Below are positions 8,866 to 28,611 of a DNA stretch of 64,000 nt, in pieces. The notes under the pieces are model-generated. The model saw nothing but the letters and a program-made list of their open reading frames with translations. It did not search any database and was not told the DNA's origin. The position numbers and the translations under genes are program-made. The first letter of the stretch is position 1. The number at the start of each line of letters is the position of its first letter. The DNA is from an uncultured Gammaproteobacteria bacterium (GTDB taxonomy: Bacteria; Pseudomonadota; Gammaproteobacteria; Steroidobacterales; UBA11654), in contig CACJRN010000008.1 of the NCBI GenBank assembly GCA_902595845.1, positions 2,153-66,152 of the forward strand, read 5' to 3'.

Positions 8866-9477
8866 CTATTTAATTTCATCATTCTGAAAGAGCATTGTGA
8901 CTTTATAGAGTATAGGTGTCATAAGAAGCCATGGAACTTGCCCATGTAAAGTAATCGTTCGATCACCATATTGAAATAAAACTGGGTTCATCCAAGGACC
9001 AGTTGGTGCCAATGGTGCCCATGATAGATCTTTTCCAACTGCAAGCTGATCATAGTAAAGAAACATTTCAACGAAGATATTTTGGCTAATGCACCAAATC
9101 AGAAGGATCAAAAAAGCATCAATGTTCCACTGATTAAATACTGTGCGATCAGATCCCAATAATTTACCTGTTAACAATATGCCACCAAGACTAATCGTTC
9201 CAGCATCTGCAAGTGAGTTCATGAGCCAATTGATATTTTTTGGTATGAATTGATTCAAAACCTCTGATCTTCTTAAATCAACTGGATCTCCAGCATATAG
9301 TCCATAGGTAAACCATAATTCCCAACCAAGGGCACAAATCAAAAAACTTGAGAGGTATATTTTGAGTATTGACTGAGACAGTTGATTCTTTAGATAAAGG
9401 TTGAAAAGTATGATGATTGGAACAATTGCGGTGGTGTAGACCACCACCACAACTCTTAGTTCCTCAAAAGTCATCAT
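8866..9477 (-). CDS. polytopic membrane protein, unknown function
   Basis: 203 aa with about 5 hydrophobic helices and many Trp. It lies downstream of and co-directional with the minus-arm amine operon. Confidence 0.45.
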   Translation of the reverse strand: MMTFEELRVVVVVYTTAIVPIIILFNLYLKNQLSQSILKIYLSSFLICALGWELWFTYGLYAGDPVDLRRSEVLNQFIPKNINWLMNSLADAGTISLGGILLTGKLLGSDRTVFNQWNIDAFLILLIWCISQNIFVEMFLYYDQLAVGKDLSWAPLAPTGPWMNPVLFQYGDRTITLHGQVPWLLMTPILYKVTMLFQNDEIK

Positions 9478-9502
9478 TCAGACCTGAAGATTGATTGAAG
9501 CT

Positions 9503-9910
9503 TTATTTGATAAAGACAGTGTGGTCTTTGTCTTTTTCTGTAATTCTTATAACCAGAAGACTTTGACAATCATCTTCGCTCATAGCGGGTGTATCTGAAT
9601 CTCCTCCATGCACCCAGTCAGTTCTTTCAAACCAGTACTCGTTTTTTGTGTATCTCTTCCACTCACCCGTTGACTTGGATTGCGAGACTCCATCAAGCAC
9701 ATAAACCAAGGTTCCAGAAGCTGGATGAAAATGCTTGGGTGTATCACCGCCACAGCTTTCTCTTCGCTCTACATGCATGTCCATTTTTCCATCTAAATCA
9801 AAGATTTCTGATGAGATAAGACCTTCAAAGCTTGGCTCAGAATCGTCATGGCCGCCAGCGTATAAACCGTGGCTCAAAAGTAGAATTGATATTGCAGTTA
9901 AATATTTCAT
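9503..9910 (-). CDS. exported cupin-domain protein
   Basis: 135 aa with signal peptide MKYLTAISILLLSHGLYA and a cupin-like metal motif region (PKHFHPASGTLVYVLDG ... WVHGG). Confidence 0.5.
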   Translation of the reverse strand: MKYLTAISILLLSHGLYAGGHDDSEPSFEGLISSEIFDLDGKMDMHVERRESCGGDTPKHFHPASGTLVYVLDGVSQSKSTGEWKRYTKNEYWFERTDWVHGGDSDTPAMSEDDCQSLLVIRITEKDKDHTVFIK

Positions 9911-9941
9911 GGTTACTCCTAACTTTTATATTAAATTTTCA

Positions 9942-11342
9942 TTAAATGGATCTAAGATACCATTCAAAGTCTTTGTTGCTAATTTGTGATGAGAAGCGAT
10001 CTAATTCACAAGTTCTGCAGTGATGAAATATACGACAGAACTCCTCATCAAAATATTGAGGCAGTATGGTTGCTTGATTGAATTCATCTAGGGAATCTTG
10101 CCATTTAACTGGCAATGTAACCTCTGGATCTATGACTTCACTTTCTTGAATCATCTCGGGTGGAGAGATCTCTTTTGTCAATCCGTGATGCATACCGGCC
10201 AAAACAGAAGCGACAACCAAATATGGATTCGCATCAGCACCTGCTGAACGATGCTCAATTCTGACATTGTCATCATCAGATAGTGGAATCCTTAGCGACA
10301 GATTTCTGTGATTAGGCCCCCAATTGGGTGTAATGGGTGCAAAAAATCCTGGTGCGAAACGTCTATAAGAGTTTGCGTTGGGGCAAAATATTGCCATGCC
10401 CTCTTTCATGGTCTCAGCAAGACCGCCCACTGCGTATTGGAGGTTTTCATTAAACCCAGTTGAGTCGCTCTCATCGTGAGCGAAAACAGGGTTTCCAGAA
10501 CTATCTTTCAAGCTCACATGAATGTGCATACCCGATCCTGCAGATTCCAAAAATGGTTTTGCCATGAATGTGGCTCCCATCCCAAACTCTCTAGCTGTCT
10601 CTTTGACTGCTCTTCTTAGAAGCATGGATTGATCACAAGCCAAAATAGCGTCTGATACATGATGCAGATTGGTTTCAAATTGCCCGGTTGAAAACTCAGA
10701 TATTGCCGTGCCCACTGGAATGTTTTGCTGATCGCATATTTCTTGGAGACGGTTAAAAAATGGATCAAGTTCCCTTAAGTCTTCTAGTGAGTAAACTTGA
10801 GGTCCAGCTTGATGCAAAATGGTACCAGGTGTTGGGCTGTGTCTTGGAGTGACCATTAAACCGTCATGATCCAGATAGAGGTAAAACTCGAGCTCTACTG
10901 CAATTGTTGCATGCAAGTCATCGTCTGCCAGTTTTTGCACGACTCGACTCAGTACATTTCTAGCTTCATGCGGATAAGCATTCCCCTCTTTATCAACCAA
11001 TGTAAGTAAGACTTGTGCCATTTCTTTTTCAAGCCATGGAACAGGAGCAAGTGATCCATCCACTGGATGACCAAATATATCTGGATCCCCATCATCACTT
11101 CCCAGTATCAGTCCATCAATGACATCGCCACCGGAATCCAATAAAGGAGTGGCGGCACAAAAGTTAAGTCCCTTTTCGAACAGAGACTGTGCTTCATGAA
11201 TATCGACTCTCTTGCCACGAATGATTCCATTGTTGTCTGGCATCATCACTTCAACGCCTACAGTATTTGGGTGTTTTTTAAGAAATTCTTTTAGTTCAGT
11301 CACGTTCAGTCGCCCTTTCCAAAAACGAGACTTCGTCTCCAT
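9942..11342 (-). CDS. glutamine-synthetase-family gamma-glutamyl-amine ligase (PuuA/PauA/GmaS-like)
   Basis: 466 aa with a GS catalytic-domain pattern (GSGMHIHVSL, NSYRRF, ADANPYL) and a PuuA-like N-terminus (LKKHPNTVGVEVMMPDNNGIIRGKRV). The ATG start overlaps the upstream gene by 37 nt. An alternative GTG at 11303 would remove the overlap. Confidence 0.75.
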   Translation of the reverse strand: METKSRFWKGRLNVTELKEFLKKHPNTVGVEVMMPDNNGIIRGKRVDIHEAQSLFEKGLNFCAATPLLDSGGDVIDGLILGSDDGDPDIFGHPVDGSLAPVPWLEKEMAQVLLTLVDKEGNAYPHEARNVLSRVVQKLADDDLHATIAVELEFYLYLDHDGLMVTPRHSPTPGTILHQAGPQVYSLEDLRELDPFFNRLQEICDQQNIPVGTAISEFSTGQFETNLHHVSDAILACDQSMLLRRAVKETAREFGMGATFMAKPFLESAGSGMHIHVSLKDSSGNPVFAHDESDSTGFNENLQYAVGGLAETMKEGMAIFCPNANSYRRFAPGFFAPITPNWGPNHRNLSLRIPLSDDDNVRIEHRSAGADANPYLVVASVLAGMHHGLTKEISPPEMIQESEVIDPEVTLPVKWQDSLDEFNQATILPQYFDEEFCRIFHHCRTCELDRFSSQISNKDFEWYLRSI

Positions 11343-12121
11343 TCAAGCGCTGCTTTGATGCCTTCTTTTTTGAGAATATCGTAAAACTCTGTTTTCTCAT
11401 CGTAATCGGTTGTCTCAAGCAGCATGTTCGCCTCTGATGCATCATCGAGTGCAGATCTCATGCCGCTGATTTCCATGGTTTTATTGATGGCTTTTTTGGT
11501 GATCGCTACAGACATCATGTCATTGGCTGCAATGGTTTCAGCGAATTCAATGCCTGTTGACTCAAGATTTTCGAGGTCAACGACTCGATTGATAAGGCCC
11601 ATCTCATAAATCCTTTGGGCAGGTATGCGTTTGTCTGCACAAAGCAATATTTCCTTGGCCAGTTTGGGTCCTGTTAACCAGGGTAAATTTAGCACCACGA
11701 TTCCGCTGGCTATGGATACTTCTGGCTCTCCAAACAGTGCACAACTTGAGGCAACGGTCAGATCACAACTCAAAGCCAACTCCATGGCTCCACCAAGACA
11801 GTATCCTTGAACACAAGCAATGGTTGGTTTGGGTGAATCCCAAAAACGCATGATCGTATCAAAGTCATTTTGCAGAGCAGCACGAATGTCCTCGTCTTTG
11901 TCTGATGACCAAACTTCATCGTCCAGATCAAATCCTGCTGAAAAAGATTTACCATTGGCTTTAACCACAATCGCTCGAATGGAATGATCTTCCTCTGCTT
12001 GATCCATTGCTGCATTCATCTCAGCCATCATGGCTGTATCGATTGCATTGAGCTTATCTGGCCTATTTAAAGTCAGCAGTGCAACAGGTCCATTGACCTC
12101 ATATGTGAGTGATTTACTCAC
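11306..12121 (-). CDS. enoyl-CoA hydratase/isomerase (crotonase) family protein
   Basis: 271 aa with crotonase motifs (LTLNRPDKLNA, KSFSAGFDL, GYCLGGAMELAL, FGEPEV). Confidence 0.85.
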   Translation of the reverse strand: MSKSLTYEVNGPVALLTLNRPDKLNAIDTAMMAEMNAAMDQAEEDHSIRAIVVKANGKSFSAGFDLDDEVWSSDKDEDIRAALQNDFDTIMRFWDSPKPTIACVQGYCLGGAMELALSCDLTVASSCALFGEPEVSIASGIVVLNLPWLTGPKLAKEILLCADKRIPAQRIYEMGLINRVVDLENLESTGIEFAETIAANDMMSVAITKKAINKTMEISGMRSALDDASEANMLLETTDYDEKTEFYDILKKEGIKAALEWRRSLVFGKGD

Positions 12122-12127
12122 AGATAT

Positions 12128-13648
12128 TTACCCGAGGTTATACCAAATCGATTTGCTTTGTGTGTATCCAAGCACTGACTCAAAGCATGAATCTTTGGTA
12201 TTGCCCGATTGCTTGTATCCACCAAACTCAAAGGTCATATCGCCAACATCGTAGCAGTTGACATAAACCATGCCTGACTCAATGGCTTTCGCCATGTTAT
12301 GAGCTCGACTGACATTGCTCGTCCAGACTGATGCGCAAAGACCATAGATTGTGTCATTGGCCATTTCGATGGCTTCTTCCTCAGAATCAAACGGAATAAT
12401 GGAAGCGACCGGTCCAAAGATCTCTTCACGACCAATGGTCATGTCATTGTTCACATCTGCAAACATGGTTGGTTCAACGAAACATCCAGACTCAAGTCCT
12501 GTTGGAATGTTTCCACCAAATTTGAGTTTCGCACCTTCATTTTTTCCTGATTCAATGAAGCCCAATACTCTTTTTTGAGCTTGTGCTGACATCAATGGAC
12601 CCATGTTTGTTTCTGGATCCAATGGATCACCAGGTGTATATGCACCTTGGCCTTCTGCAATGAATTGATCAACGAAATCAGCATAAATTGCTCTTTCAAC
12701 ATAGATCCTAGATCCTGCATTACAGACTTCGCCCATATTTGCATAGATTGAATCATAGGCTGTAGAGACAGCGAGTTCCATATCAGGTAAATCAGCGAAG
12801 TAAATCATGGGTGATTTCCCACCAGTCTCAAGGCTGACTTTTTTCATATTGGACTGACCGGCATATTGTAAAAGAAGTTTTCCAACTTCGGTTGATCCAG
12901 TGAATCCGATCTTCGAGACATCTTGATGGAGCGCCAAAGATTGTCCGGCCTCTTCACCATGTCCCGTGACCACATTGAATACCCCTGGAGGTCCACCTGC
13001 TTCGACAAAAAGCTCTGCCATTTTTATACACGAGTGAGGCGAATGCTCATCTGGTTTAAGAACAATTGAATTCCCTGCAGCCAATGCTGGAGCAATTTTC
13101 CAAACACCCATGAGAAGCGGATAATTCCATGGAGAAATCAATCCAACCACACCATATGGCTCTCTAACAGAAAGGTTCAGTGCTTTTTCATGTGTATTGG
13201 CAACTTTTCCATACATCTTATCGATACACTCTGCCATGAATCGAATGTTCACAGCTGAAGCTGGAACATCAACATTCAAACAATCGCTGATCGGCTTACC
13301 CATATTCATAGAATCCATGAGGGCAAGTTCAGCTGTATTTGCCTGAAGAAGATCGGCAAACTTCATCATGATTCCCATCCTTTTCCTGGGCGCCATCTTC
13401 CTCCAAGTCTTTGCTTTGAAGCTTTCTTTTGCTGCGGCAACGGCCTTATCTATATCTTTTTCATTTCCTGCTGCACATGTTCCACAAGCCTCGTTGGTTG
13501 CAGGATTGATGACTTCTATCTTTCCGCCATCTGCTGCATCAACATATTCACCATTAATGAAACATCTTCCTTCGAAGATACTATCGGCATCGCCCGCCAT
13601 CTTGGCCCAATCATCTTTAGACAATGCTTTTGCGCTTCTCGCATCCAT
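12128..13648 (-). CDS. NAD(P)-dependent aldehyde dehydrogenase
   Basis: 506 aa with LETGGKSP, catalytic Cys in GEVCNAGSR, EEIFGPV, and FTGSTEVG. Confidence 0.9.
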   Translation of the reverse strand: MDARSAKALSKDDWAKMAGDADSIFEGRCFINGEYVDAADGGKIEVINPATNEACGTCAAGNEKDIDKAVAAAKESFKAKTWRKMAPRKRMGIMMKFADLLQANTAELALMDSMNMGKPISDCLNVDVPASAVNIRFMAECIDKMYGKVANTHEKALNLSVREPYGVVGLISPWNYPLLMGVWKIAPALAAGNSIVLKPDEHSPHSCIKMAELFVEAGGPPGVFNVVTGHGEEAGQSLALHQDVSKIGFTGSTEVGKLLLQYAGQSNMKKVSLETGGKSPMIYFADLPDMELAVSTAYDSIYANMGEVCNAGSRIYVERAIYADFVDQFIAEGQGAYTPGDPLDPETNMGPLMSAQAQKRVLGFIESGKNEGAKLKFGGNIPTGLESGCFVEPTMFADVNNDMTIGREEIFGPVASIIPFDSEEEAIEMANDTIYGLCASVWTSNVSRAHNMAKAIESGMVYVNCYDVGDMTFEFGGYKQSGNTKDSCFESVLGYTQSKSIWYNLG

Positions 13649-13668: not shown

Positions 13669-15756
13669 TTACTTTTGCTGATGCAAAGATATCAATGCAT
13701 CAACCGCTATACAAATATCGTTTCCTAATATTACGGGATTTAAATCAATTTCACATATCTGATTGCTCAACTTCAACGCAATCAAAGAGAACCTTGATGC
13801 AAAATCCGCAAATGCATCCAAATCAGCTGGTTCTGATCCGCGATAACCATCGAGCAATGTTTTCATTTTGAGTGATCCCAGCGCTTCCTTCGCAGCCTCT
13901 TTGGAAAAAGGAGGCATCAGGGTAACCGCATCATTCATTGCCTCAGCGTAGTAACCACCAAAACCAATTGTCACCATGGGGCCGAGTTGCTCATCTGTGG
14001 TCATGCCAATGATCATCTCAACTCCCTCAGATTCAATCATCCTTGCAAGCAAGGCATCGCCTGGCAGATTTTTCTGAAGCTCATTGTATGCACTGCTCAA
14101 TTTTTCTTCTGAATCGATGTTTAGGTAAACTCCACTCAACTCAGATTTATGGAAGACATCTTCAACGGCAGTTTTTAAGACCAAAGGAAAACCCATGTCC
14201 TTTGCTGATGACAATAATTCTTCTTCATTGGTGATGACATTGCTTTGATTGGTATTTAAGCCCAAATCAAAAAACATATTGAGCGCCTGTGCTTCACTCA
14301 CAAACTCACTTTTAGAGAGTTCATCTTGGTATTTTTTCAACTTATCAGAGTTGAGATCAGTATCGATGACATCTTCGTCCTTTATGAAATCTCTATACTG
14401 ATGAAGGCATCGAACACCTGCAAGAAATGAATGCATGCCATCCAATACTGGCATTCCTTTATTTGTGGCCTCAACTGCCAAAGGATGAATGCCTGTGCCT
14501 TGCCTATTTGAAACAAGGAATACTGGCTTACCAGTACGATCATTTGCCTGCTTCATATACTCATCAATGTATTCCTGATGTATCAGACCCAATGGCCCTC
14601 TATCCATGACGATTGCAGCCATAGAAGCATTTGGATCATCGAGCATTTCTGTGATGCTATCAGCCATGATTTGATCGGCGTCTCCCAATCCTTTGCCCCA
14701 TGCATCAAGAGGATTAACTGGGGGCAAACCAGGATCGAGAATCTCTTTAAGTTTTTGAGTGGTGCTATCCTCAAGCTTTGCAAATTCAACTCCTTGTTGA
14801 TCGGCAATATCAATGATGAGTTGCCTCTCTCCTCCGGAGTCATGAATGGAGACCATATTTCCATCTGCCAATTCAAAGGGTTGATCAAACATGATGAGAG
14901 TCGTGGCAAGTTCATCCATGTCTGCAACCCTTTGAATGCCATATTTTTTGAACAGTGCATTGTAGTAATCATCCACACCAGCCAAACCACCTGAGTGAGA
15001 AACTGTGAGCTCTGCAGACCGCTCGGTCCTGCCTGTCTTTAGAACGATGATTGGAATTTTTTTCTGTTTTGCTAGCTCAAATGCTTGGATCATTTTTTCC
15101 GGCTTTCGAATGGTTTCAAGAAACATACCAACCACAGTTGTGCTCTCTTGATGAAGAATATAATCAAGGTAATCTTCCGCACCAACGGTCAGCTCAGATC
15201 CAGATGAAACAGAAAGGTTGAGATTGATCCTTTCTTCACAATCAATGATCCCAGCAACCCCTGAACCCGATTGACTGATGATGCATACTCCTCCGGGTTC
15301 ATGATTCGGTCTAGAGAAGTGACCATTGACCCAAACACCTTTTTCAATATGAAAAAACCCCATTCCATTGGCGCCGCATAAGAGAATGTCAGCTGCTTTT
15401 AGTTTTGCCTGTAAACGATCTTTTAAATATGGCTTCTCATCATCATCTAAATAAAGCATCGACATGATTGACATGGCCTTCACGCCAGCCTCAATGGCAG
15501 CATCTACCACTCCTTCAATTCTTTCATCTGATACAGCAAAAATTGCATGCTCAACTTTCTCTGGCAGAGATTCAAAGTCGGGATAGCATGGCACACCAAA
15601 TGCCTCTTCGTTTTTTGGATGCAGTCCATATAACTTGCCTTTATACCCCCCGTGCTGAAGGTTTTTGATGATTCGACTCCCCATCCCGCCAGAGGTCGTT
15701 GCACCAACAACAACAATGCTTTCTGGGTTTAACAGTGAATCTAGGCGGTGCGGCAT
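13669..15756 (-). CDS. ADP-forming acyl-CoA synthetase (acetate--CoA ligase family, fused alpha/beta)
   Basis: 695 aa. N-terminal CoA-binding Rossmann (SIVVVGATTSGG), succinyl-CoA-synthetase-like middle domains, and a C-terminal ATP-grasp-like region. Confidence 0.8.
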   Translation of the reverse strand: MPHRLDSLLNPESIVVVGATTSGGMGSRIIKNLQHGGYKGKLYGLHPKNEEAFGVPCYPDFESLPEKVEHAIFAVSDERIEGVVDAAIEAGVKAMSIMSMLYLDDDEKPYLKDRLQAKLKAADILLCGANGMGFFHIEKGVWVNGHFSRPNHEPGGVCIISQSGSGVAGIIDCEERINLNLSVSSGSELTVGAEDYLDYILHQESTTVVGMFLETIRKPEKMIQAFELAKQKKIPIIVLKTGRTERSAELTVSHSGGLAGVDDYYNALFKKYGIQRVADMDELATTLIMFDQPFELADGNMVSIHDSGGERQLIIDIADQQGVEFAKLEDSTTQKLKEILDPGLPPVNPLDAWGKGLGDADQIMADSITEMLDDPNASMAAIVMDRGPLGLIHQEYIDEYMKQANDRTGKPVFLVSNRQGTGIHPLAVEATNKGMPVLDGMHSFLAGVRCLHQYRDFIKDEDVIDTDLNSDKLKKYQDELSKSEFVSEAQALNMFFDLGLNTNQSNVITNEEELLSSAKDMGFPLVLKTAVEDVFHKSELSGVYLNIDSEEKLSSAYNELQKNLPGDALLARMIESEGVEMIIGMTTDEQLGPMVTIGFGGYYAEAMNDAVTLMPPFSKEAAKEALGSLKMKTLLDGYRGSEPADLDAFADFASRFSLIALKLSNQICEIDLNPVILGNDICIAVDALISLHQQK

Positions 15757-21501: not shown

Positions 21502-21545
21502 CAGAGATTAGTCTCTGGTGTAGATAATGTTGAATCGAGAATCGA
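21502..21545. promoter_or_regulatory. candidate operator region in the divergent promoter of the amine supercluster
   Basis: Perfect inverted repeat CAGAGA-ttag-TCTCTG (21502-21517), followed by tandem GAATCGA GAATCGA (21532-21545). Both lie in the 162-nt gap between the divergent first genes. Confidence 0.3.
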
Positions 21546-21607
21546 GTAAATACATCATATGGTTAAATATTATCCAAATAATTATTAGTTTCAAAGGAAA
21601 ATCGTCA

Positions 21608-22604: not shown

Positions 22605-23768
22605 ATGCATATTAATTTACCAGATGATGTTAAAGAGTGGATAAAAACTGCTGAGAGCTTCCTTGAAGAAACAAAGCCTTGGGAAGTTGAGGCAGAAATG
22701 AATAGTGGCAAGGTCCCAGAAGAAATTGATAGCAAGCATCGGCAGATGGCAATTGATCTTGGATTATCAAGCATGGACATGCCAAAAAGCATTGGCGGAA
22801 AAGAATTATCTAATCTTCAACAAGTCGCTGTTTGGGAAGTCTTGGGCAGGAGTACAAATGCCCTGACATGGTGTTTCTCAGAACCTCAGAGATGGATGCT
22901 TGAGGCATGCAATGAAGAGCAAATTAAAAAATACATTCTGCCGATCATGGATGGAAGTCGACACGAATGCTATGCGATCACGGAATCTGAATCAGGTTCA
23001 GAGCTTGATGTTTCAGCCACTGCAAAAAAAGTGGATGGTGGATATATTGTCAATGGGGAGAAATGGTATGTAACTGGTGCCAATCATGCCGACTTCTTTT
23101 TTATCCAAGCAGTCATCCAAGATGGAGATGATGTAATTGGTGATGCTTTGTTTTTCTTGGATATGGATCAAGAAGGAATTGAGCATGTTCGAACACCGCT
23201 TTTCTCTCACACATTCGATAGCCATCATCCTATTTATAAATTCCATGATGTTTTCATACCCGACGAGAACTTAATCGGATCAGAAGAAGATGGAATGAGT
23301 TATTCGCTGGCATGGTTCAGAAGGGAACGCTTGATGATCGCTGCTAGATGCTGCGGTGCAGCTGCAAGATTAATAGAAGAAGCAACTGAATTTGCTCAAG
23401 CCAGAAAAGTTAAAGGCGGACTTTTATCAGAACAACAAGCCATTCAGTTCATGCTTGCTGACAGTGTCACTGAACTTTGGGCAACAAGACTGATGCTTTA
23501 TGAAACAGCTATGGCGCATGATCGTGAAGACGATGTCAAAGCACTTCATTATCGATGCTCTGCAGTCAAGCTTTATGCTTCAGAAATGGCCAATAAAGTT
23601 GCAGATAGAGTTGTGCAAATCTTTGGAGGCAGAGGCTACATGAGAGAATTTGCTGCCGAAAGATTTTATAGAGAGCTTAGAGTAGATCGAATCTGGGAAG
23701 GGACTTCAGAAGTTCAGCGTCTCATTATCGCTGGAGGCCTTCTTAAGAAAGGTCTTAAGGATCTCTAA
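22605..23768 (+). CDS. acyl-CoA dehydrogenase
   Basis: 387 aa with the ACAD pattern (CYAITESESGSE, GEKWYVTGA, QIFGGRGY) and a catalytic-base context IWEGTSEVQR. Confidence 0.85.
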   Translation: MHINLPDDVKEWIKTAESFLEETKPWEVEAEMNSGKVPEEIDSKHRQMAIDLGLSSMDMPKSIGGKELSNLQQVAVWEVLGRSTNALTWCFSEPQRWMLEACNEEQIKKYILPIMDGSRHECYAITESESGSELDVSATAKKVDGGYIVNGEKWYVTGANHADFFFIQAVIQDGDDVIGDALFFLDMDQEGIEHVRTPLFSHTFDSHHPIYKFHDVFIPDENLIGSEEDGMSYSLAWFRRERLMIAARCCGAAARLIEEATEFAQARKVKGGLLSEQQAIQFMLADSVTELWATRLMLYETAMAHDREDDVKALHYRCSAVKLYASEMANKVADRVVQIFGGRGYMREFAAERFYRELRVDRIWEGTSEVQRLIIAGGLLKKGLKDL

Positions 23769-23781: not shown

Positions 23782-24666
23782 TTGAAAAATAAACCAGCCA
23801 TTCTTGATTGGGTCTCTATCATTGGACTTTCAGCTGTTTGGAGCAGCGCATTTGTTTTCATTAAACAAACAACGCCGATCTTTGGGGCAGTTGGTTTGGT
23901 CTTTATGCGACTATTCATTTCGGCAGTTATTCTTAGTCTGTTATTTATAAGACCAAAGCATATTAAAACCATCCGGGATAATATTATTCCAATTTTTATA
24001 GTCGGCGCTACAAATGTAACCATACCGTTTATGTTTTTTGCACTATCTGCCTATTACATCAATGCGGGATCAATGGCGGTCGTGAATGGAAGCACGCCAT
24101 TGTTTGCCTTTCTTTTCTCAATTCTATTATTGGGGTTCACATTCAGATGGATCCAATTTTTAGGTATTCTGATGGGCATTATTGGATTGATCATTTTTGT
24201 TGGTGTTGATGCATTGGAATTTCATCCAATGGCAAATCTCTCTGCTGTCATGGGTGCAATGATGTATGGCCTCTCAATGGTTTATATCTTTAAGTTAAAT
24301 TTCAAAGACACCAAGCTCATGGCAGCAGCAAGTATGGTTGCTGCAACTATTTGCATAGCTCCTCTATTGATTTTTTTCCCAATCCCTTGGGATATAGTTA
24401 CGACTGAATCGATGATCAGTGTTATTTATTTAGCTACTTTTTGTACTGGGTTGGCTTATATCCCCTACTTTATTTTGATTAGAAATGTTGGGCCTGTAAG
24501 CACATCAATTATTGCGATGCTAGTACCGGTATTCGGAATGCTATGGGCTTATGTTTTGCTCGAAGAAAAAATAACATTATTGATGTCCGTCGGTTGCTTG
24601 TTTATTGTTATAGGTATCTTGATGACCAATGTAATTGGAAATAATAACGATAAAAAATCTGCATAA
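23782..24666 (+). CDS. DMT-superfamily (EamA) transporter
   Basis: 294 aa with about 10 hydrophobic helices arranged as two EamA-like halves. TTG start. Confidence 0.7.
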   Translation: MKNKPAILDWVSIIGLSAVWSSAFVFIKQTTPIFGAVGLVFMRLFISAVILSLLFIRPKHIKTIRDNIIPIFIVGATNVTIPFMFFALSAYYINAGSMAVVNGSTPLFAFLFSILLLGFTFRWIQFLGILMGIIGLIIFVGVDALEFHPMANLSAVMGAMMYGLSMVYIFKLNFKDTKLMAAASMVAATICIAPLLIFFPIPWDIVTTESMISVIYLATFCTGLAYIPYFILIRNVGPVSTSIIAMLVPVFGMLWAYVLLEEKITLLMSVGCLFIVIGILMTNVIGNNNDKKSA

Positions 24667-24678
24667 ACCAATTTGATT

Positions 24679-25782
24679 ATGAAATTAAATTTGATCAAGG
24701 CTTTACTGCCTCTGCTATTTATTACACAGCTGTCACTGGCTGAGGGAGTTGTTAATTTCTACAATTGGGCAGATTACATTGGCGAATCAACCATCAAAGA
24801 TTTTGAAGAAGAGTATGGCATAAAAGTCAACTATGATGAGTATGATTCTTCTGAGATTGTCGAAGCAAAACTTTTAGCTGGAAACTCAGGATATGACCTA
24901 GTTGTTCACTCAAGCATGTATTCAAAAAGATTGATGCCGCTTAAAATATTTCATGAAATTGATCCTACGAAACTCTCAAACTTTGAAAAACTCGACCCAA
25001 TGCTTATGGAAATGCTCGATGAAATTGATTCTGGAAACAAAATCATGATTCCATACAGCTACGGATCAACAGGAGTCAGTTATGATGCAAAGAAAATCTT
25101 TGCCAGAGACCCCAACCCACCTATTGGCAGTGCTGACATGCTCTACGATGCTGATACGATCTCAAAATTTGCAGATTGCGGCATCAGCATCCTTGATTCG
25201 CCCACAGATGTCATCCCTCAAGCACTTGTCTATCTTGGTTATGATGACAGTTCAAAAGATCCAGATGAGCTCCAGGAAGCAGAGGATCTTTTACATGAGG
25301 CGAGACCATATATTAAAAAATTCACTTCAAGCACTTTGCTAAATGACTTGGCAAACGGTGATGTTTGTATCGCGATGAGTTGGGCTGGTGATTATGCCAC
25401 AGCCAGTGCTCGAGCAAGTGAAGCTGGTAAAGACATTGATTTAAGATATTTTGTGCCTGAGGAAGGTGGGCTGCTTTGGGTCGATATCATCGTGATTCCA
25501 AAAGATGCAAAGAATTTAGAGAATGCTTATTTATTACTTGATTATCTCCTGCGACCTGAAGTCAGTGCAGATTTTGTCAATTTGACTCATTATGCAAGTC
25601 CTGTTCCAGATGCAAAACCTTTCATCAAAGAAGAGGTACTCAATGACACGGCAGTTTACCCAACGCCTGAGATCATGGATCGACTCTTTTTCACAGAGGT
25701 AGATCCGCCAAAATATACAAGGATAAAGACAAGAATTTTTAGTCGATTCAAAACAGGAATTAAAAAACGAGAAAGAAAATGA
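24679..25782 (+). CDS. polyamine-type ABC transporter periplasmic binding protein (PotD/PotF family)
   Basis: Start moved from TTG 24673 to ATG 24679. Signal peptide, and a PotF-like N-terminal motif VNFYNWADYIGE. Confidence 0.85.
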   Translation: MKLNLIKALLPLLFITQLSLAEGVVNFYNWADYIGESTIKDFEEEYGIKVNYDEYDSSEIVEAKLLAGNSGYDLVVHSSMYSKRLMPLKIFHEIDPTKLSNFEKLDPMLMEMLDEIDSGNKIMIPYSYGSTGVSYDAKKIFARDPNPPIGSADMLYDADTISKFADCGISILDSPTDVIPQALVYLGYDDSSKDPDELQEAEDLLHEARPYIKKFTSSTLLNDLANGDVCIAMSWAGDYATASARASEAGKDIDLRYFVPEEGGLLWVDIIVIPKDAKNLENAYLLLDYLLRPEVSADFVNLTHYASPVPDAKPFIKEEVLNDTAVYPTPEIMDRLFFTEVDPPKYTRIKTRIFSRFKTGIKKRERK

Positions 25783-26876
25783 CAAGTGATGAAAAAAATT
25801 TCATTGAAATAAAAGGCGTCAGTAAACATTTTGGTGATGTTGTCGCTGTAGACAATGTTGATTTAGCAATCAAAAAGGGCGAGCTTTTTTCCATACTAGG
25901 TGCGTCAGGCTCAGGTAAAACAACCCTTTTGAGGATATTAGCTGGTTTAGAAATACCAAGCCAAGGAAGCATATTAATCGATGGCGTTGACATGACATCA
26001 GTGGCTCCATATAACAGACCTGTAAACATCATGTTTCAAAACTATGCTTTATTTCCCCACATGAGCGTCTTTGAGAATATTGCATACGGCTTAAAAAAAG
26101 AAGGCCTACAAAAAGAAAGCATTGAAGAAAAAGTTCAGAAAATGCTCGCTTTAGTGAAACTTGAGGGTTACGAGAATAGAAAACCCAATCAACTCTCTGG
26201 CGGACAGTCTCAAAGAGTCGCCCTAGCTAGATCGCTTGTCAAAGAGCCAAAAGTTCTTCTTCTAGATGAGCCCATGGCGGCGCTTGATAAAAAACTCAGA
26301 CAGAGCACTCAGTTTGAGCTGATGGATATTCATTATGAGCTTGGCATAACCTTTGTAATTGTCACACATGACCAAGAGGAAGCAATGACGCTCTCAGATC
26401 GAATTGCGATCATGGAGCAAGGGCAGTTTGTGCAAATAGGTTCTCCAAATTTAATTTATGAAAATCCAAGATCTAAGTTTGTGGCTGACTTCTTGGGTAA
26501 TATCAATCTCCTAGAAGCGACGATAACTGAACAAAATGACAAAGAGATCGTTGTCGACTGTGCTGCACTTGGAGGTGAGTTAAAGTTTGATCAAACTGAA
26601 CAAGCGAATGCATCTGAAATGACTGTGGCCTTGAGACCAGAGAAAGTAATGATTGAAAAAAACATACCAACGAATGATGACCAAAGTCATATTAAAGGCA
26701 TTGTTGAGGACTTTGGATACTTCGGTAATCTTTCTATTTATCGTGTCAAAACTGAGAGTGGGCATGTCATTCAGGTCAGTAAACAAAACAGAGATCGAGT
26801 TGAGCAGTCCATTAAGTGGGAAGATGAGGTTTACCTTTCTTGGGATAATGACAGCCTGATGTTATTGGGTGAATAG
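25779..26876 (+). CDS. polyamine-type ABC transporter ATPase (PotA/PotG-like)
   Basis: Walker A GASGSGKTT, signature LSGGQSQR, Walker B LLLDEP, and a C-terminal TOBE-like domain. ATGA overlap upstream. Confidence 0.9.
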   Translation: MTSDEKNFIEIKGVSKHFGDVVAVDNVDLAIKKGELFSILGASGSGKTTLLRILAGLEIPSQGSILIDGVDMTSVAPYNRPVNIMFQNYALFPHMSVFENIAYGLKKEGLQKESIEEKVQKMLALVKLEGYENRKPNQLSGGQSQRVALARSLVKEPKVLLLDEPMAALDKKLRQSTQFELMDIHYELGITFVIVTHDQEEAMTLSDRIAIMEQGQFVQIGSPNLIYENPRSKFVADFLGNINLLEATITEQNDKEIVVDCAALGGELKFDQTEQANASEMTVALRPEKVMIEKNIPTNDDQSHIKGIVEDFGYFGNLSIYRVKTESGHVIQVSKQNRDRVEQSIKWEDEVYLSWDNDSLMLLGE

Positions 26877-27802
26877 TGTCTGGTTTACTTGTAAATACAA
26901 ATAATTCAATCAGAGAAAATCTCTGGAGATACTTTATTGTTGCCATCCCTTATATTTGGCTACTGCTTTTCTTTCTGGCTCCCTTTGTCATTGTCTTCAA
27001 AATCAGTCTGGCTGATCCAATCATTGCTCAACCTCCATTTACTCCATTGTTCAATGAAAGCTCGGATGGTGGATTTTCAATTTATACGACATTTGATAAC
27101 TTCTTGTATTTATTTCAAGATTCGCTCTACTTCGTCACTTATCTTAATTCTGTAAAACTTGCCTTTATTGCAACTTTTTTTACTTTGCTGATTGGATATC
27201 CAATAGCATATGGCATAGCAAGATCACCACAGCCCACTCGAAACATTCTTCTATTACTGGTTGTTATACCTTTCTGGATTTCTTTTCTTTTAAGGGTTTA
27301 TTCTTGGATGGGAATTCTTAAAACAAATGGATTGATAAATGGGTTTTTGCTTTGGTTGGGCGTCATCGATCAACCCCTCGAGCTTCTATATACCGATACC
27401 GCTGTATACATTGGTATGGTTTATTCATACCTCCCGTATATGATACTTCCGCTTTATGCGAACCTGGTGAAGCTCGACGTGAGGCTGCTTGAAGCAGCTT
27501 CAGACTTGGGTGCGAAAAAATGGCAAGGGTTTTTGGATGTCACTTTGCCATTGTCAATGCCAGGAATCATTGCAGGGTGCTTATTGGTATTCATACCAGC
27601 GATCGGTGAATATGTTATACCTGCTCTTCTTGGCGGTGCAGATACATTAATGATTGGAAGGGTTCTCTTTGATGAATTTTTCCTCAATAGAGATTGGCCT
27701 GTTGCATCGGCAGTTGCGATTGTTCTTCTTTTATTACTGGTACTGCCAATTGTTTATTTTCAAAAGAAACAAGCACAAGAAACATCGGAGGCAACAGCGT
27801 AA
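26876..27802 (+). CDS. polyamine-type ABC transporter permease (PotB/PotH-like)
   Basis: 308 aa, GTG start overlapping the upstream stop. EAA loop LLEAASDLGAKKWQGFLDVTLP. Confidence 0.85.
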   Translation: MSGLLVNTNNSIRENLWRYFIVAIPYIWLLLFFLAPFVIVFKISLADPIIAQPPFTPLFNESSDGGFSIYTTFDNFLYLFQDSLYFVTYLNSVKLAFIATFFTLLIGYPIAYGIARSPQPTRNILLLLVVIPFWISFLLRVYSWMGILKTNGLINGFLLWLGVIDQPLELLYTDTAVYIGMVYSYLPYMILPLYANLVKLDVRLLEAASDLGAKKWQGFLDVTLPLSMPGIIAGCLLVFIPAIGEYVIPALLGGADTLMIGRVLFDEFFLNRDWPVASAVAIVLLLLLVLPIVYFQKKQAQETSEATA

Positions 27803-28611
27803 TGTTGAATCAGAGATCAAGATTCATCTTTTCTGCCCTTTGTTTCGGTTTTGCTTTTTTATACATCCCAATTCTTCTAGTCATCATTTACTCATTCAAT
27901 GACTCTCGATTGGTAACCGTATGGGGCGGATGGTCATTTAGATGGTATGTCGAGCTATTCAACAATGAGAATATTTTAAATGCAGCACTATTGAGTTTTC
28001 AGATAGCTGCCATCACAGCAACATTTGCAACAATCATGGGAACGATGGCTGGCTTTATCATGGCAAGAATAAAAAAATTCAGAGGAAGATTGTTATTCTC
28101 AGGAATGATTGCTTCTCCATTGGTGATGCCTGAAGTGATCACTGGGTTATCTCTACTTCTTTTATTTGTATCATTGCAAGATTTCATAGGTTGGCCAACT
28201 TCAAGAGGAATGAACACGATTACGATCGCGCACATCACATTTTCCATGGCCTATGTTGCAGTGATCATTCAGTCAAGATTAACTGAGATCAATGAATCAT
28301 TAGAAGAAGCCGCGATGGATTTAGGCGCAAGGCCACTTCGAGTTTTATGGGACATTACTCTTCCAATCATATTTCCTGCGATGATCTCTGGATGGCTTTT
28401 ATCATTCACCCTGTCTTTGGATGATCTAGTCATTGCCAGTTTTGTTTCTGGTCCTGGAGCAACCACTCTTCCTATGTTGATATTCTCCAAGGTTCGACTG
28501 GGTGTCTCACCAGATATAAATGCATTGGCCACAATCTTAATTGTTGTGGTCACATTAGGATTGTGTATTGCTGCTTGGATCACATCGAGGCAAAATAGGT
28601 CAGCCAAATAA
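27802..28611 (+). CDS. polyamine-type ABC transporter permease (PotC/PotI-like)
   Basis: Start trimmed from 27694 to ATG 27802 (TAATG overlap, MLNQRSRF). EAA loop LEEAAMDLGARPLRVLWDITLP. Confidence 0.85.
   Translation: MLNQRSRFIFSALCFGFAFLYIPILLVIIYSFNDSRLVTVWGGWSFRWYVELFNNENILNAALLSFQIAAITATFATIMGTMAGFIMARIKKFRGRLLFSGMIASPLVMPEVITGLSLLLLFVSLQDFIGWPTSRGMNTITIAHITFSMAYVAVIIQSRLTEINESLEEAAMDLGARPLRVLWDITLPIIFPAMISGWLLSFTLSLDDLVIASFVSGPGATTLPMLIFSKVRLGVSPDINALATILIVVVTLGLCIAAWITSRQNRSAK

Follow-up and report, generated by a model that had tools for sequence, protein, structure and literature searches.

Two tightly packed and divergent gene arms in the genome of an uncultured gammaproteobacterium raise the question of whether they work as one unit and, if so, which amine they take up and degrade. 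The stretch analysed, hereafter the window, comprises 64,000 nucleotides.

Architecture of the two arms

The region 8866-28611 is a real two-armed gene island, common to many marine and soil bacteria. The 18 genes reported by the first-pass annotation, together with their family assignments, were all borne out by open reading frames and family searches. The features of the island and its downstream neighbours are:

8866..9477, minus strand: 203-aa membrane protein (open reading frame)
9503..9910, minus strand: small secreted cupin (weak Cupin_2 match and signal peptide)
9942..11303, minus strand: GS-like ATP-dependent ligase, probable start GTG 11303 (Pfam Gln-synt_C)
11306..12121, minus strand: crotonase-family enoyl-CoA hydratase, ECH (Pfam ECH_1)
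12128..13648, minus strand: aldehyde dehydrogenase (ALDH) of aminoaldehyde type, PuuC/BADH-like (NCBIfam)
13669..15756, minus strand: fused ADP-forming acyl-CoA synthetase, ACD (family searches)
15763..16953, minus strand: GcvT-like folate-binding protein (Pfam GCV_T and GCV_T_C)
16955..18523, minus strand: CrtI-like flavoprotein B with its own GGGHNS motif (ATG 18523; overlaps A by 8 nt)
18516..20132, minus strand: CrtI-like flavoprotein A, FAD Rossmann motif GAGHNG (Pfam Amino_oxidase/NAD_binding_8; overlaps AT3 by 4 nt)
20129..21445, minus strand: class-III aminotransferase (AT3) of the HemL/GntE-like subgroup, first minus-arm gene (Pfam Aminotran_3)
21446..21607, no strand: divergent promoter region between the arms (junction coordinates)
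21608..22534, plus strand: alpha/beta hydrolase (Pfam Abhydrolase_1; HGWP and SHDWG motifs)
22605..23768, plus strand: acyl-CoA dehydrogenase (ACAD) with MCAD-type catalytic Glu (Pfam)
23782..24666, plus strand: EamA-family transporter, lineage-specific insertion (Pfam EamA)
24673-28611, plus strand: PotFGHI-type importer, four genes together (family searches)
24673..25782, plus strand: predicted periplasmic polyamine-binding protein, SpuE/PotF type (PDB search)
25779..26876, plus strand: polyamine ABC transporter ATPase, PotG/PotA-like (TIGR01187 potA subfamily)
26876..27802, plus strand: PotH-like ABC permease (NCBIfam PotH, 403 bits; cut-off 489)
27802..28611, plus strand: PotI-like ABC permease, probable start ATG 27802 (NCBIfam PotI, 360 bits; cut-off 476)
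28630..30630, plus strand: TPR-sulfotransferase, 18 nt past the PotI-like gene (Pfam)
30627..31190, minus strand: small AspH-like 2-oxoglutarate oxygenase (Pfam Asp_Arg_Hydrox)

The length of 162 nt given for the divergent region was upheld, since the start at 21608 assigned to the hydrolase is backed by an AAGGAA ribosome-binding site; about 105 nt on the hydrolase side are kept in four related contigs, the remainder is not conserved, and no Rfam match was found in 21446..21607. The tight minus-arm junctions of -4, -8, +1, +6, +20 and +6 nt were correct when the start codons behind all six were checked. The two CrtI-like genes and the GcvT-like gene, hereafter the trio, directly follow the aminotransferase gene and are coupled by overlaps of 4 and 8 nt and a gap of 1 nt. 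The junction between the crotonase and GS-like genes is also tight, as had been claimed, but its probable value is +2 rather than -37, which is a longest-ORF artefact: the alternative start, GTG 11303, is preceded by GGAAAGGG and agrees with how the gene is called in a close relative (456 aa).

Conserved core and lineage-specific genes

The first-pass annotation had allowed that non-synteny in relatives would make the two arms chance neighbours. This was examined in 80 related genome loci, with the both-arm count limited to the 38 loci with enough flank, and both arms were found together in 19 of these. The two-arm synteny spans Steroidobacterales/Woeseiaceae, other Gammaproteobacteria and one Rhodovibrionaceae MAG, and the 17-gene order is identical in close pelagic relatives. 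Synteny of the block across many genomes takes the arrangement beyond chance, and the two arms are one functional unit.

The number of genes co-occurring as a block had been put at about 17; only about 13 do so, namely those for AT3, the trio, ACD, ALDH, the crotonase, the GS-like ligase, ACAD and PotFGHI. The trio is near-invariant, with CrtI-like B directly after CrtI-like A in 43/44 loci and the GcvT-like gene present in 44/44, and AT3 lies upstream of it in 38/53. In the minus arm, ACD was found in 25/44 loci, the ALDH and GS-like genes in 19/44 each, and the crotonase gene in 16/44. In the plus arm, ACAD and the binding-protein gene occur in 34/53 loci each, the PotG-like and PotH-like genes in 33/53 each and the PotI-like gene in 30/53. 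Relatives of CrtI-like A are encoded at more than 582 genome loci; no description of the trio was found in the literature, and a search for a CrtI-GcvT fusion protein, as a sign of a physical complex, found none.

On the other hand, the hydrolase, EamA, cupin, membrane-protein and TPR-sulfotransferase genes are specific to this lineage. The cupin and membrane-protein genes, into which the minus arm had been suggested to continue, were each counted in 1/44 loci, and neither belongs to the core. The cupin occurs only in L002 and is missing from the close relative L087, and the membrane protein, which has no Pfam or NCBIfam match, has homologs downstream of the GS-like gene in both L002 and L087 and is an accessory of close relatives only. 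The hydrolase, EamA and TPR-sulfotransferase genes were found in 2/53 loci each, the last being an adjacent neighbour in the closest relatives only and lying outside the conserved block. AspH-like homologs were observed just ahead of the trio, or of its TetR gene, in L003, L010, L030, L075 and L076, and this oxygenase is possibly a loose associate of the island.

The island had also been called regulator-less. No regulator lies between the arms in the window, but this is a derived state, since a BetI-like TetR (111 bits) occupies that position in 27 related loci, at the slot held here by the hydrolase, whose HGWP and SHDWG motifs indicate an enzyme of epoxide-hydrolase/dehalogenase type. Relatives also carry a GbcA-like Rieske oxygenase (285 bits). 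It is proposed that the pelagic lineage lost the ancestral repressor and oxygenase and gained the hydrolase and EamA genes by insertion. Elsewhere, the trio is accompanied by DgcA-like (in alphaproteobacterial loci, where no GS-like gene was found), DMGDH-like, second Rieske and SpdH-like genes, and acetylpolyamine-amidohydrolase-like genes recur near it. In OM182 loci, it is enclosed by Puu-like genes, which encode a GS-like protein, DAO, GATase, ALDH and a SpuC-like aminotransferase. L003 and L009 have, beside the cluster, a gene for an acrylyl-CoA reductase that is a true AcuI (537 bits, cut-off 440), and in the Fuscovulum operon, headed by an AT3 of the same subtype, a 'DMSP lyase family' cupin replaces ACD. 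Neither Rieske oxygenase nor AcuI genes, which in relatives support the breakdown route proposed below, were found in the window. A paralogous ECH-ACD-HADH-CrtI-like-GcvT operon was observed in Shinella sumterensis, and the ACD-ACAD pair was found again on a Paracoccaceae plasmid.

Candidate substrate and competing readings

No island protein reached an NCBIfam equivalog cut-off, and PotG passed the subfamily cut-off for polyamine ABC ATPases (409 > 355.6 bits). The binding protein best matches SpuE (PDB 3ttl, 315 bits), and across 28 orthologs its residues W32, D34, Y35, W237, D240, W269 (the SpuE-type Trp) and D271 do not vary. CrtI-like A, which among PDB entries comes closest to CrtI (4dgk, E 1.6e-20), shares 32.5% identity with B. 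The GcvT-like protein, the proposed C1 acceptor, has as its nearest matches the TMAO-demethylase C-terminal domain and T-protein, and both the catalytic Asp of T-protein (T. maritima D96, 'IDDG') and Y83 are conserved in it. The best NCBIfam match of AT3 is GntE (448 bits, cut-off 525), and its nearest PDB entries are glutamate-1-semialdehyde aminomutases. ALDH scores 538 bits against PuuC (cut-off 850) and 470 against BADH, and ACD stands at the same distance from 3HP-CoA ligase, 4HB-CoA ligase and the DMSP lyase DddX. Catalytic residues are intact in both the crotonase (Glu pair E114 and E134 kept in 13 orthologs) and ACAD ('IWEGTSE' motif invariant in 29 orthologs). The GS-like protein, probably a gamma-glutamyl-amine synthetase, is below every equivalog cut-off, including those of type III GS, its best NCBIfam match (190/469 bits), and of the PuuA type, gamma-glutamylputrescine synthetase (174/650).

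We tentatively favour, at a little under an even chance, uptake and catabolism of a cationic polyamine-like amine with N-methyl groups and/or aminopropyl ends. The binding protein and PotGHI would import the amine, as the conserved ligand-binding residues suggest. The CrtI-like pair and the GcvT-like protein may then oxidise N-methyl groups, with tetrahydrofolate receiving the C1 unit, a step suggested by the invariant linkage of the trio, the retained T-protein Asp and the N-demethylase neighbours in relatives. AT3 would turn a terminal primary amine into an aldehyde and ALDH would turn the aldehyde into an acid, by which an aminopropyl end would become an N-substituted beta-alanine, and ACD would form the CoA thioester. 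The C-N bond could be cleaved either by DddX-type beta-elimination, yielding acryloyl-CoA, or by ACAD and the crotonase in the manner of DmdC/DmdD, through dehydrogenation and then hydration, and a shortened amine and a C3-CoA would be freed in both cases. In the least certain step, the GS-like ligase may gamma-glutamylate the other amino end, as protection in the Puu/Pau manner, or a small released amine.

An N-methylated and/or aminopropyl polyamine had been the first candidate proposed, and it is tentatively favoured here. The N-methyl theme is supported by the T-protein Asp and TMAO-demethylase likeness of the GcvT-like protein and by the BetI-like and GbcA-like genes in relatives and the DgcA-like, DMGDH-like, second Rieske and SpdH-like genes in other trio contexts; the polyamine theme by the SpuE-like binding protein, the PotG score, the OM182 context and the acetylpolyamine-amidohydrolase-like neighbours; and the C3/acryloyl-CoA theme by DddX residues in ACD, the flanking AcuI genes and the Fuscovulum cupin. 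Counting against this reading are the failure of every island enzyme to reach equivalog level, the variability of the Glu432 position among ACD orthologs, the likeness of the CrtI-like proteins to carotenoid desaturases, the negative search for a CrtI-GcvT fusion and the absence of Rieske oxygenase and AcuI genes from the window. In addition, natural N-methylated small polyamines are, to our knowledge, poorly documented except for the long-chain polyamines of biosilica. Another proposed candidate, cadaverine via glutaryl-CoA, found no support, ACAD scoring 111 bits against a cut-off of 470 with the sole glutaryl-CoA dehydrogenase model matched.

Catabolism of a quaternary-ammonium or omega-amino-acid betaine, such as gamma-butyrobetaine or beta-alanine betaine, the nitrogen analogue of DMSP, is unlikely. 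Its methyl groups would be removed one after another by Rieske, DgcA-like and trio proteins, the acyl part would go through ACD, ACAD and ECH in a Cai/Dmd-like manner, and deamination of the beta- or omega-amino acid so produced would fall to the aminotransferase. The repressor and oxygenase of relatives, the alphaproteobacterial DgcA-like flavoprotein, the parallel of GcvT/ACD/ACAD/ECH to DmdA-D with a weak CaiA match of ACAD, the fold subgroup that AT3 shares with beta-amino-acid transaminases and the Shinella operon all agree with it. However, the binding protein is of SpuE/PotF rather than ProX/OpuAC type, with all acidic diamine-binding residues invariant, the window contains no Rieske oxygenase, and the aminoaldehyde-type ALDH and amine-end transaminase point to import of an amine that is not yet an acid. 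An ordinary putrescine/spermidine pathway (gamma-glutamylation or transaminase, Puu/Spu/Pau-like) with the extra genes as passengers would account for the GS-like ligase, PuuC-like ALDH, class-III aminotransferase, PotFGHI-like transporter and SpuE-like binding protein, but it is quite unlikely, considering that the supposedly extra trio is better conserved than the GS-like and ALDH genes and is packed straight after AT3, that PuuB and PuuD homologs are absent from the window and that the GS-like protein falls short of the PuuA-type cut-off.

We regard as very improbable the catabolism of DMSP or a sulfonium amine (e.g., DMSP-amine) by Dmd-like demethylation and/or a DddX-like lyase, despite the family parallel with DmdA-D, the residues common to ACD and DddX, AcuI near two loci and the Fuscovulum cupin: the GcvT-like protein scores 144 bits against the DmdA cut-off of 410, the transporter is of polyamine rather than BCCT or ProX type, and sulfonium demethylation leaves the flavoprotein pair, BetI-like repressor and GbcA-like oxygenase without a role. 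Least probable is methylamine oxidation, where the GS-like protein would be a gamma-glutamylmethylamide synthetase, the trio would replace N-methylglutamate synthase/dehydrogenase and the other genes would yield methylamines from a larger precursor. The GS-like gene immediately follows the GcvT-like gene in several lineages, its product best matches type III GS, and methanimine capture fits T-protein-like chemistry; against this stand the sub-cut-off score of that match, the alphaproteobacterial trio loci without a GS-like gene and the tight coupling of the aminotransferase to the trio, from which a primary-amine product of larger size would be expected.

Relation to known systems

The island shares with Puu/Spu pathways the core of GS-like ligase, PuuC-like ALDH, class-III aminotransferase and PotFGHI-like transporter, but homologs of the PuuB-type DAO oxidase and PuuD-type hydrolase were not found in the window, and its earlier separation from a plain Puu/Spu pathway holds. 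In comparison with DddX, the phosphohistidine (SHSG; DddX His292) and the equivalent of W391, a cation-pi Trp common to both enzymes, are invariant in 32/32 ACD orthologs, although this 'NPLDAW' Trp is not diagnostic since other bacterial ACD clades have it too. The catalytic base Glu432 of DddX corresponds to Glu in the window ACD but in only 6/32 orthologs, and Phe435 aligns with Asp. The families match DmdA-D one-to-one (GcvT with DmdA, ACD with DmdB, ACAD with DmdC and ECH with DmdD), although the GcvT-like protein is nearer to Tdm/T-protein than to DmdA. The CrtI-like proteins are closer in sequence to carotenoid desaturases than to amine oxidases, so C-C desaturation could be their chemistry instead. 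In the favoured reading of a methylated and/or aminopropyl polyamine, the proposed logic, N-methyl oxidation with transfer to folate, would be the same as that of dimethylglycine/sarcosine oxidase, carried out by a different flavoprotein family.

Gene content and the conserved core of the island

All of the genes that the first-pass annotation had named in the two arms were recovered in Pfam and NCBIfam scans, and the start codons underlying its quoted junctions were checked. An AAGGAA ribosome-binding site at the hydrolase start (21608) supports a divergent region of 162 nt, and the junctions linking the class-III aminotransferase (AT3), the two CrtI-like flavoproteins (CrtI_A and CrtI_B) and the GcvT-like protein are -4, -8 and +1 nt. 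The -37 junction ahead of the glutamine-synthetase-like (GS-like) gene proved to be an artefact of longest-ORF choice and was corrected to +2; the alternative GTG start at 11303 is accompanied by a GGAAAGGG site and matches the gene of 456 aa called in a close relative. Relatives of CrtI_A are encoded at more than 582 loci, as found by a pattern scan across 185,579 species genomes, and the best 80 of these loci were retained and mapped by tblastn. Since these are the best-scoring loci, the synteny fractions describe the relatives of this cluster and not the whole family. A flank of 9.5 kb or more was required for counting the genes downstream of CrtI_A (44 loci), and one of 8.5 kb or more for those upstream of it (53 loci).

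Genes of the island, with the number of loci in which each lies downstream (of 44) or upstream (of 53) of CrtI_A; all counts are among the best 80 of more than 582 loci
8866-9477, minus arm: membrane protein, 203 aa; downstream in 1/44
9503-9910, minus arm: small, secreted cupin; downstream in 1/44
9942-11342 as the longest ORF, minus arm: GS-like ligase, Gln-synt_C fold; downstream in 19/44
11306-12121, minus arm: crotonase (Pfam and NCBIfam); downstream in 16/44
12128-13648, minus arm: aldehyde dehydrogenase, ALDH (Pfam and NCBIfam); downstream in 19/44
13669-15756, minus arm: fused ADP-forming acyl-CoA synthetase, ACD (CoA_binding, Succ_CoA_lig and ATP-grasp_5 domains); downstream in 25/44
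15763-16953, minus arm: GcvT-like protein (Pfam and NCBIfam); downstream in 44/44
16955-18523, minus arm: CrtI_B, CrtI-like flavoprotein (Pfam and NCBIfam); downstream in 43/44
18516-20132, minus arm: CrtI_A, CrtI-like flavoprotein (Pfam and NCBIfam)
20129-21445, minus arm: AT3, class-III aminotransferase (Pfam and NCBIfam); upstream in 38/53
21608-22534, plus arm: alpha/beta hydrolase with HGWP and SHDWG motifs; upstream in 2/53
Next on the plus arm: acyl-CoA dehydrogenase, ACAD; upstream in 34/53
Next on the plus arm: EamA transporter; upstream in 2/53
24673-28611, plus arm: PotFGHI importer; PotF upstream in 34/53, PotG in 33/53, PotH in 33/53, PotI in 30/53
18 nt further on, plus arm: TPR-sulfotransferase; upstream in 2/53

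The motifs of the hydrolase place it in the epoxide-hydrolase/dehalogenase type. None of the island proteins reached an NCBIfam equivalog cut-off, and therefore every island enzyme is taken as a paralogue of its named family; the GS-like protein, for instance, scored 174 bits against 650 for GGputSyn and 190 against 469 for type III glutamine synthetase. PotG lies above the polyamine ABC ATPase subfamily cut-off (NCBIfam TIGR01187, 409 > 355.6). The cupin was considered as a DMSP-lyase-type cupin and rejected, its HxHxxxxE metal motif being incomplete and its gene occurring in one relative only.

Both arms, represented by PotF, ACAD, AT3 and ACD, were found together in 19 of the 38 loci having both flanks (among the best 80 of more than 582), and these two-armed loci belong to Steroidobacteraceae, Woeseiaceae, other Gammaproteobacteria and one Rhodovibrionaceae MAG. 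The arms, which had been proposed to act as one unit, are therefore syntenic in relatives and have been conserved as a unit, which excludes a chance juxtaposition. Of the ~17 genes whose co-occurrence as a block was to be checked, about 13 make up the core; the hydrolase, EamA transporter, cupin, membrane protein and TPR-sulfotransferase genes lie outside it, are rare in relatives and are recent additions in this lineage.

The nearest genome loci (L001 and L002) come from an uncultured 'Woeseia sp.' MAG and a marine single-cell genome, and the identical 17-gene order is present on two Tara Oceans contigs (L087 and L088). Identity to the nearest genome, L002, is 100% for ALDH, 99% for the crotonase and 97% for ACAD, but 88% for CrtI_A, 63% for CrtI_B, 79% for the GcvT-like protein and 67% for the hydrolase, and the trio formed by the CrtI-like pair and the GcvT-like protein is nearer to L001 (96%, 83% and 88%, respectively). 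This mosaic, examined at 15763-20132 and 21608-22534, indicates a probable recombination tract or a chimeric assembly across the trio. Either the CrtI pair or the entire trio is duplicated in some genomes: at one locus (L010), a further CrtI pair lies inverted some 8 kb from the first, and in the NORP44 MAG two contigs (L055 and L056) each have the trio among the same neighbours. Additionally, the TPR-sulfotransferase and a small AspH-like 2-oxoglutarate oxygenase (28630-31190) are repeatedly found together close to the cluster, in lineages that are not related to one another (L030, L060, L003, L010, L075 and L076), the AspH-like gene often lying directly upstream of the trio or of the trio's TetR.

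The flavoprotein trio and the CoA module

CrtI_A and CrtI_B are 32.5% identical, and a dinucleotide-binding motif is found in each. By sequence, both are nearer to CrtI/CrtO than to amine oxidases (nearest PDB entries 4dgk and 4rep), and no DAO-family flavoprotein catalytic subunit was found as a trio partner, the partners belonging to the CrtI/phytoene-desaturase family. Nevertheless, assignment to CrtO was rejected (298 and 218 bits against an NCBIfam cut-off of 1000), as was membership of the crtI_fam subfamily (136 and 124 bits against 238), and carotenoid genes were absent from every related locus examined. An AlphaFold model of CrtI_A built on an 8-sequence alignment was too poor to use (mean pLDDT 50.7).

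The GcvT-like protein is nearest to T-protein and to the C-terminal domain of TMAO demethylase (Tdm), which is a formaldehyde-capturing domain, and on these grounds, as well as by its score (NF009133, 144 bits against 410), it is not DmdA. Its catalytic Asp is kept, with 'IDDG' aligning with D96 of the T. maritima T-protein, and Y83 is also conserved. To our knowledge, all characterised GcvT-fold proteins move a C1 unit to folate, with the exception of the YgfZ/IBA57 iron-sulfur-cluster branch. Considering this role together with the constant flavoprotein linkage, the trio is best read, by analogy, as a system that oxidises N-methyl (or similar) groups and whose product, an iminium or formaldehyde, would be trapped by folate. 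Dimethylglycine oxidase and sarcosine oxidase follow this logic, but with a flavoprotein of the DAO family and not of the CrtI family. In other genomes, the trio is found beside GbcA-like Rieske oxygenases, DgcA/StcD-like OYE flavoproteins, a DMGDH-like fusion protein, SpdH-like proteins, omega-aminotransferases and Pot-type transporters, and these demethylase- and polyamine-type neighbours support the N-demethylation reading. In OM182 loci, it lies within a fuller Puu-like set comprising GS-like, DAO, GATase, two ALDH and SpuC-like aminotransferase genes. A Rosetta-stone test among the best 150 GcvT-like representatives gave no CrtI-like/GcvT fusion; the fusions present were tandem GcvT, Tdm-like (DUF1989+GcvT) and HTH only.

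As regards the CoA module, PDB matches of about 230 bits each place the ACD at the same distance from the archaeal 3-hydroxypropionate-CoA ligase, the 4-hydroxybutyrate-CoA ligase and DddX. It was previously demonstrated that DddX forms the CoA thioester of DMSP, from which it eliminates DMS, leaving acryloyl-CoA (PMC8163506). The SHSG His equivalent to the DddX phosphohistidine His292 is invariant in the ACD orthologs (32/32), and so is the equivalent of Trp391, which makes a cation-pi contact with the sulfonium; this Trp is absent from the archaeal ligases but also occurs in other bacterial ACD clades, and its use as a diagnostic marker was downgraded. Glu432, the proposed catalytic base of DddX, corresponds to Glu in the window ACD, and to Glu in 6 of the 32 orthologs, Ser in 13, Gly in 6 and Asp in 3, while Phe435, another cation-pi residue, aligns with an Asp that has invariant Tyr residues nearby. 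Both Trp391 and Glu432 are missing from one DddX-like enzyme whose lyase activity is proven (PMC13543886). Taken together, the ACD residues point to a putatively cationic substrate and stop short of proving lyase activity.

Three independent observations bear on the product. An AcuI acrylyl-CoA reductase adjoins the cluster in two relatives (L003:12462-13454 and L009:20303-21337; NCBIfam 537 bits > cut-off 440), the Fuscovulum ytuae operon (L083), with its two Rieske genes, ends in a 'DMSP lyase family' cupin (HHHPAPELY motif) where the ACD would be expected, and GcvT, ACD, ACAD and crotonase form the same family series as DmdA-D. These observations point to a 3-substituted propionyl-CoA or acryloyl-CoA as the probable intermediate. 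The Glu base of ACAD and both catalytic Glu residues of the crotonase are kept and are conserved in orthologs. The earlier suggestion of cadaverine degradation via glutaryl-CoA is not sustained, as ACAD has no meaningful similarity to glutaryl-CoA dehydrogenase. An MDR dehydrogenase of the window (5317-6297) was considered as AcuI and found not to be AcuI-like.

Related modules are found on several plasmids. An ACD-ACAD pair recurs on that of Paracoccaceae La 6 (L090), beside an acetylpolyamine amidohydrolase and with a DgcA-like flavoprotein and a CrtI-like gene nearby, and the plasmid of Shinella sumterensis (L085, 11123-17843) carries a paralogous ECH-ACD-HADH-CrtI-like-GcvT operon with one CrtI-like gene. 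These paralogous modules indicate that the association of CrtI-like, GcvT and ACD proteins is older than this cluster. In the F. ytuae plasmid (10641-25098), AT3, CrtI_A, CrtI_B, GcvT-like, two Rieske oxygenase, PotFGHI, cupin and amidohydrolase genes form a single operon downstream of a divergent TetR.

Control, import and a candidate route

No regulator is encoded in or near the island, according to Pfam and NCBIfam scans of the window including flank ORFs, and none of the 20 flank ORFs scanned gave a transcription factor. With Rfam at E<=1, the only matches were two of chance level, both within coding sequence. In 27 related loci, however, the place between ACAD and AT3 that is taken by the hydrolase in the window is occupied exactly by a TetR, which most resembles the choline repressor BetI (111 bits). 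Therefore, the cluster is indeed regulator-less, as had been noted, but this is a derived, streamlined state. Additionally, a Rieske oxygenase most similar to the glycine betaine monooxygenase GbcA (285 bits) follows PotI in 28 loci. Genes for AcuI, the BetI-like TetR and the GbcA-like Rieske protein were sought in the window and none was found, the sole related gene being a distant VanA-type Rieske (37364-38479). About 105 nt beside the hydrolase (21503-21607) are conserved in four related contigs, while the AT3-side half is not, which suggests a retained control element that would be read by a factor encoded elsewhere.

The divergent region also contains a tandem GAATCGA repeat (21532-21545) and an AGAGAC...GTCTCT palindrome (21497-21516), which may act as an operator if the gene of a matching regulator lies elsewhere. 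Fewer Sigma-70-like promoter matches occur in 8400-28390 than in shuffles (22 versus a shuffle mean of 46.6, sd 6.2), and the best of them (10/12) falls in the divergent region and is directed toward AT3. The flanks (1819-8848 and 33955-49485) hold unrelated catabolic genes, namely those for a PQQ alcohol dehydrogenase, SDRs, a carboxylesterase, GNAT, DUF454, a UbiD-like decarboxylase, a VanA-type Rieske oxygenase with an SDR, a second ACAD-like protein, DUF2891, a Sulfotransfer_4 protein and an amidohydrolase.

The importer is of the PotF/SpuD/SpuE polyamine type: PotG passes TIGR01187, and the best PDB match of the binding protein is SpuE (315 bits), the spermidine-preferring receptor of P. 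aeruginosa. In PotF/SpuE, the nitrogens of the polyamine are bound by the equivalents of residues W32, D34, Y35, W237, D240 and D271; all of these are invariant in 28 orthologs, as is W269, the SpuE/PotD-type Trp at the PotF F276 position. This invariance argues for a genuine di- or polyamine as the probable ligand rather than a zwitterionic betaine. Alphaproteobacterial trio loci on plasmids of Parasedimentitalea, Rhizobium sp. SL42 and Shinella zoogloeoides (L081, L082 and L084) have a different Pot-like binding-protein subfamily without the acidic diamine-binding residues (WAGY, WNET and WVCG versus WxDY, WAGD and WVD), which hints at a ligand of different charge. In many Steroidobacteraceae loci, a TonB-dependent receptor gene lies downstream of PotI in the same orientation.

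The island is very probably one conserved amine-catabolic unit and not a plain putrescine pathway. The earlier claim of a complete route for an amine other than simple putrescine is upheld to that extent, PuuB and PuuD being absent and the extra genes being the most conserved, while the substrate itself is only a candidate. The overall scheme of import, demethylation and C3-CoA formation, whose chemistry we infer throughout from gene content, synteny and residue conservation, is put forward tentatively, at a little below even likelihood. A polyamine-like cation would be imported, and the trio would strip its N-methyl groups and pass the C1 units to folate, with Rieske and OYE demethylases added in relatives for quaternary and tertiary nitrogens. 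AT3 would then transaminate the terminal primary amine and the PuuC/BADH-like ALDH would oxidise the aminoaldehyde, turning an aminopropyl end into an N-substituted beta-alanine, of which ACD would form the thioester. Subsequently, either beta-elimination would break the C-N bond to give acryloyl-CoA, or ACAD dehydrogenation would be followed by crotonase hydration, as with DmdC/DmdD on the sulfur analogue, and in both cases a shortened amine and a C3-CoA would result. The GS-like ligase may protect the distal amine, as in Puu/Pau, or trap the small amine released.

Other substrates have to be weighed against this scheme. A betaine such as beta-alanine betaine or gamma-butyrobetaine would fit the BetI/GbcA/DgcA context and Dmd/Cai-like chemistry, but the SpuE-type binding pocket and the amine-to-acid enzymes are at odds with it, and it is considered unlikely. 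That the island is an ordinary Puu/Spu pathway with passenger genes is improbable: the core Puu/Spu families are present, yet the supposed passengers are its most conserved genes and PuuB and PuuD are absent. Catabolism of organosulfur compounds (DMSP or DMSP-amine) is highly improbable despite the family parallels with DmdA-D and DddX, since it fails on the DmdA score and the regulator, oxygenase and transporter are of nitrogen type. Least probable of these is a methylamine/GmaS system, which would account for a GS-like gene coming after the GcvT-like gene but fails on the GS-like score, and some trio loci have no GS-like gene.

The demethylation and C3-CoA scheme can be carried further. The island and its relatives' Rieske, DgcA-like and TonB-receptor genes could conceivably serve the iterative degradation of N-methylated oligo-propyleneimine polyamines, such as the long-chain polyamines of diatom and sponge biosilica, a speculative extension to which we assign a low probability. 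In each cycle, the CrtI-pair/GcvT module would demethylate the terminal nitrogen, with the C1 going to folate, the aminopropyl end would be transaminated and oxidised, and CoA activation would allow a C3-CoA unit to be cleaved off, exposing the next N-methyl amine. The presence of all the enzyme classes needed, in the cluster or its relatives, and the co-oriented TonB-dependent receptor support this extension. If true, no earlier proposal would exist for a pathway that recycles biosilica-bound nitrogen, and a CrtI-family/GcvT demethylase would gain its first assigned function.

In the sea and in soils, polyamines and methylated amines are a significant source of dissolved nitrogen, and their catabolism past putrescine is poorly mapped. 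The island, built from familiar enzyme families, links a polyamine importer to a three-protein module that probably feeds N-methyl carbon to folate and to a DddX-related CoA ligase. It is widespread: the lead flavoprotein occurs in more than 582 genome loci, close copies lie on Tara Oceans contigs, and the carriers include Woeseiaceae/Steroidobacterales, OM182, Halieaceae, roseobacters and rhizobia, several of them cultured, which makes the model directly testable. If correct, the scheme would represent a new type of amine demethylase, in which a CrtI-family flavoprotein replaces the DAO-family one, and a nitrogen counterpart of the Dmd/DddX chemistry of DMSP.

Comparison with known systems

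The island is a combination of Puu/Spu core families, a Dmd/DddX-like CoA module and a sarcosine-oxidase-like logic of folate-coupled demethylation, each of which has a precedent. The combination of these three elements and the CrtI-pair/GcvT module appear to be new, as a full-text search of the literature (8 million texts) found no description of the trio or of the cluster.

With E. coli Puu and Pseudomonas Spu/Pau, the island has in common a GS-like ligase, a PuuC-group aminoaldehyde dehydrogenase, a class-III aminotransferase and a PotF/SpuE-type ABC importer, although its GS-like and ALDH proteins fall under the equivalog cut-offs. Unlike those systems, it has no DAO-type PuuB/PauB oxidase, the CrtI-like proteins being the only flavoproteins in 8866-28611 and DAO-type genes occurring in some relatives only, and no PuuD/SpuA/PauD class-I amidotransferase-type hydrolase (GATase1), whereas a GATase is present in the OM182 loci. 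Its extras are the CrtI-like pair, the GcvT-like protein, the ADP-forming CoA ligase, ACAD and the crotonase.

In the N-methylglutamate pathway (GmaS, MgsABC and MgdABCD), a GS-like ligase is likewise genetically linked to a folate-dependent demethylating flavoenzyme, which is predicted in the island; however, Mgs and Mgd homologs are absent from the island and its GS-like protein is under the type III glutamine synthetase cut-off. The GbcAB-DgcAB-SoxBDAG chain and dimethylglycine oxidase perform stepwise N-demethylation with C1 capture by folate via a GcvT-fold module, as proposed for the island, and BetI-like, GbcA-like and DgcA-like genes in its relatives provide a further link. In contrast to that chain, the flavoprotein partner in the island is a heteromeric CrtI-family pair, the GcvT-like protein is a separate polypeptide and the imported substrate is predicted to be polyamine-like.

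DmdABCD of Ruegeria pomeroyi and SAR11 runs through the same order of protein families as the island: a GcvT-family protein that passes C1 to folate, a CoA-activating enzyme, an acyl-CoA dehydrogenase and a crotonase, a succession that by analogy would free a heteroatom group from a 3-substituted propionyl-CoA. Putative family-level counterparts of DmdC/DmdD are the ACAD, which keeps its Glu base, and the crotonase, in which the two catalytic Glu residues are retained. However, DmdB is an AMP-forming MMPA-CoA ligase, whereas the only CoA ligase of the island is the ADP-forming ACD, the GcvT-like protein is accompanied by flavoproteins, and the transporter and the relatives' regulators point to nitrogen and not to sulfur. 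Finally, the ACD is no closer to DddX (Psychrobacter sp. D2; PDB 7cm9), in its 230-bit match, than to the archaeal ligases, and its context is of polyamine type and not BCCT/dddBC. Nevertheless, it shares with DddX and a roseobacter DddX-like enzyme the fused architecture of the superfamily, the phosphohistidine and the Trp391 equivalent, and the DddX product, acryloyl-CoA, is also the product proposed for the island, which fits the AcuI gene found beside the cluster in two relatives.
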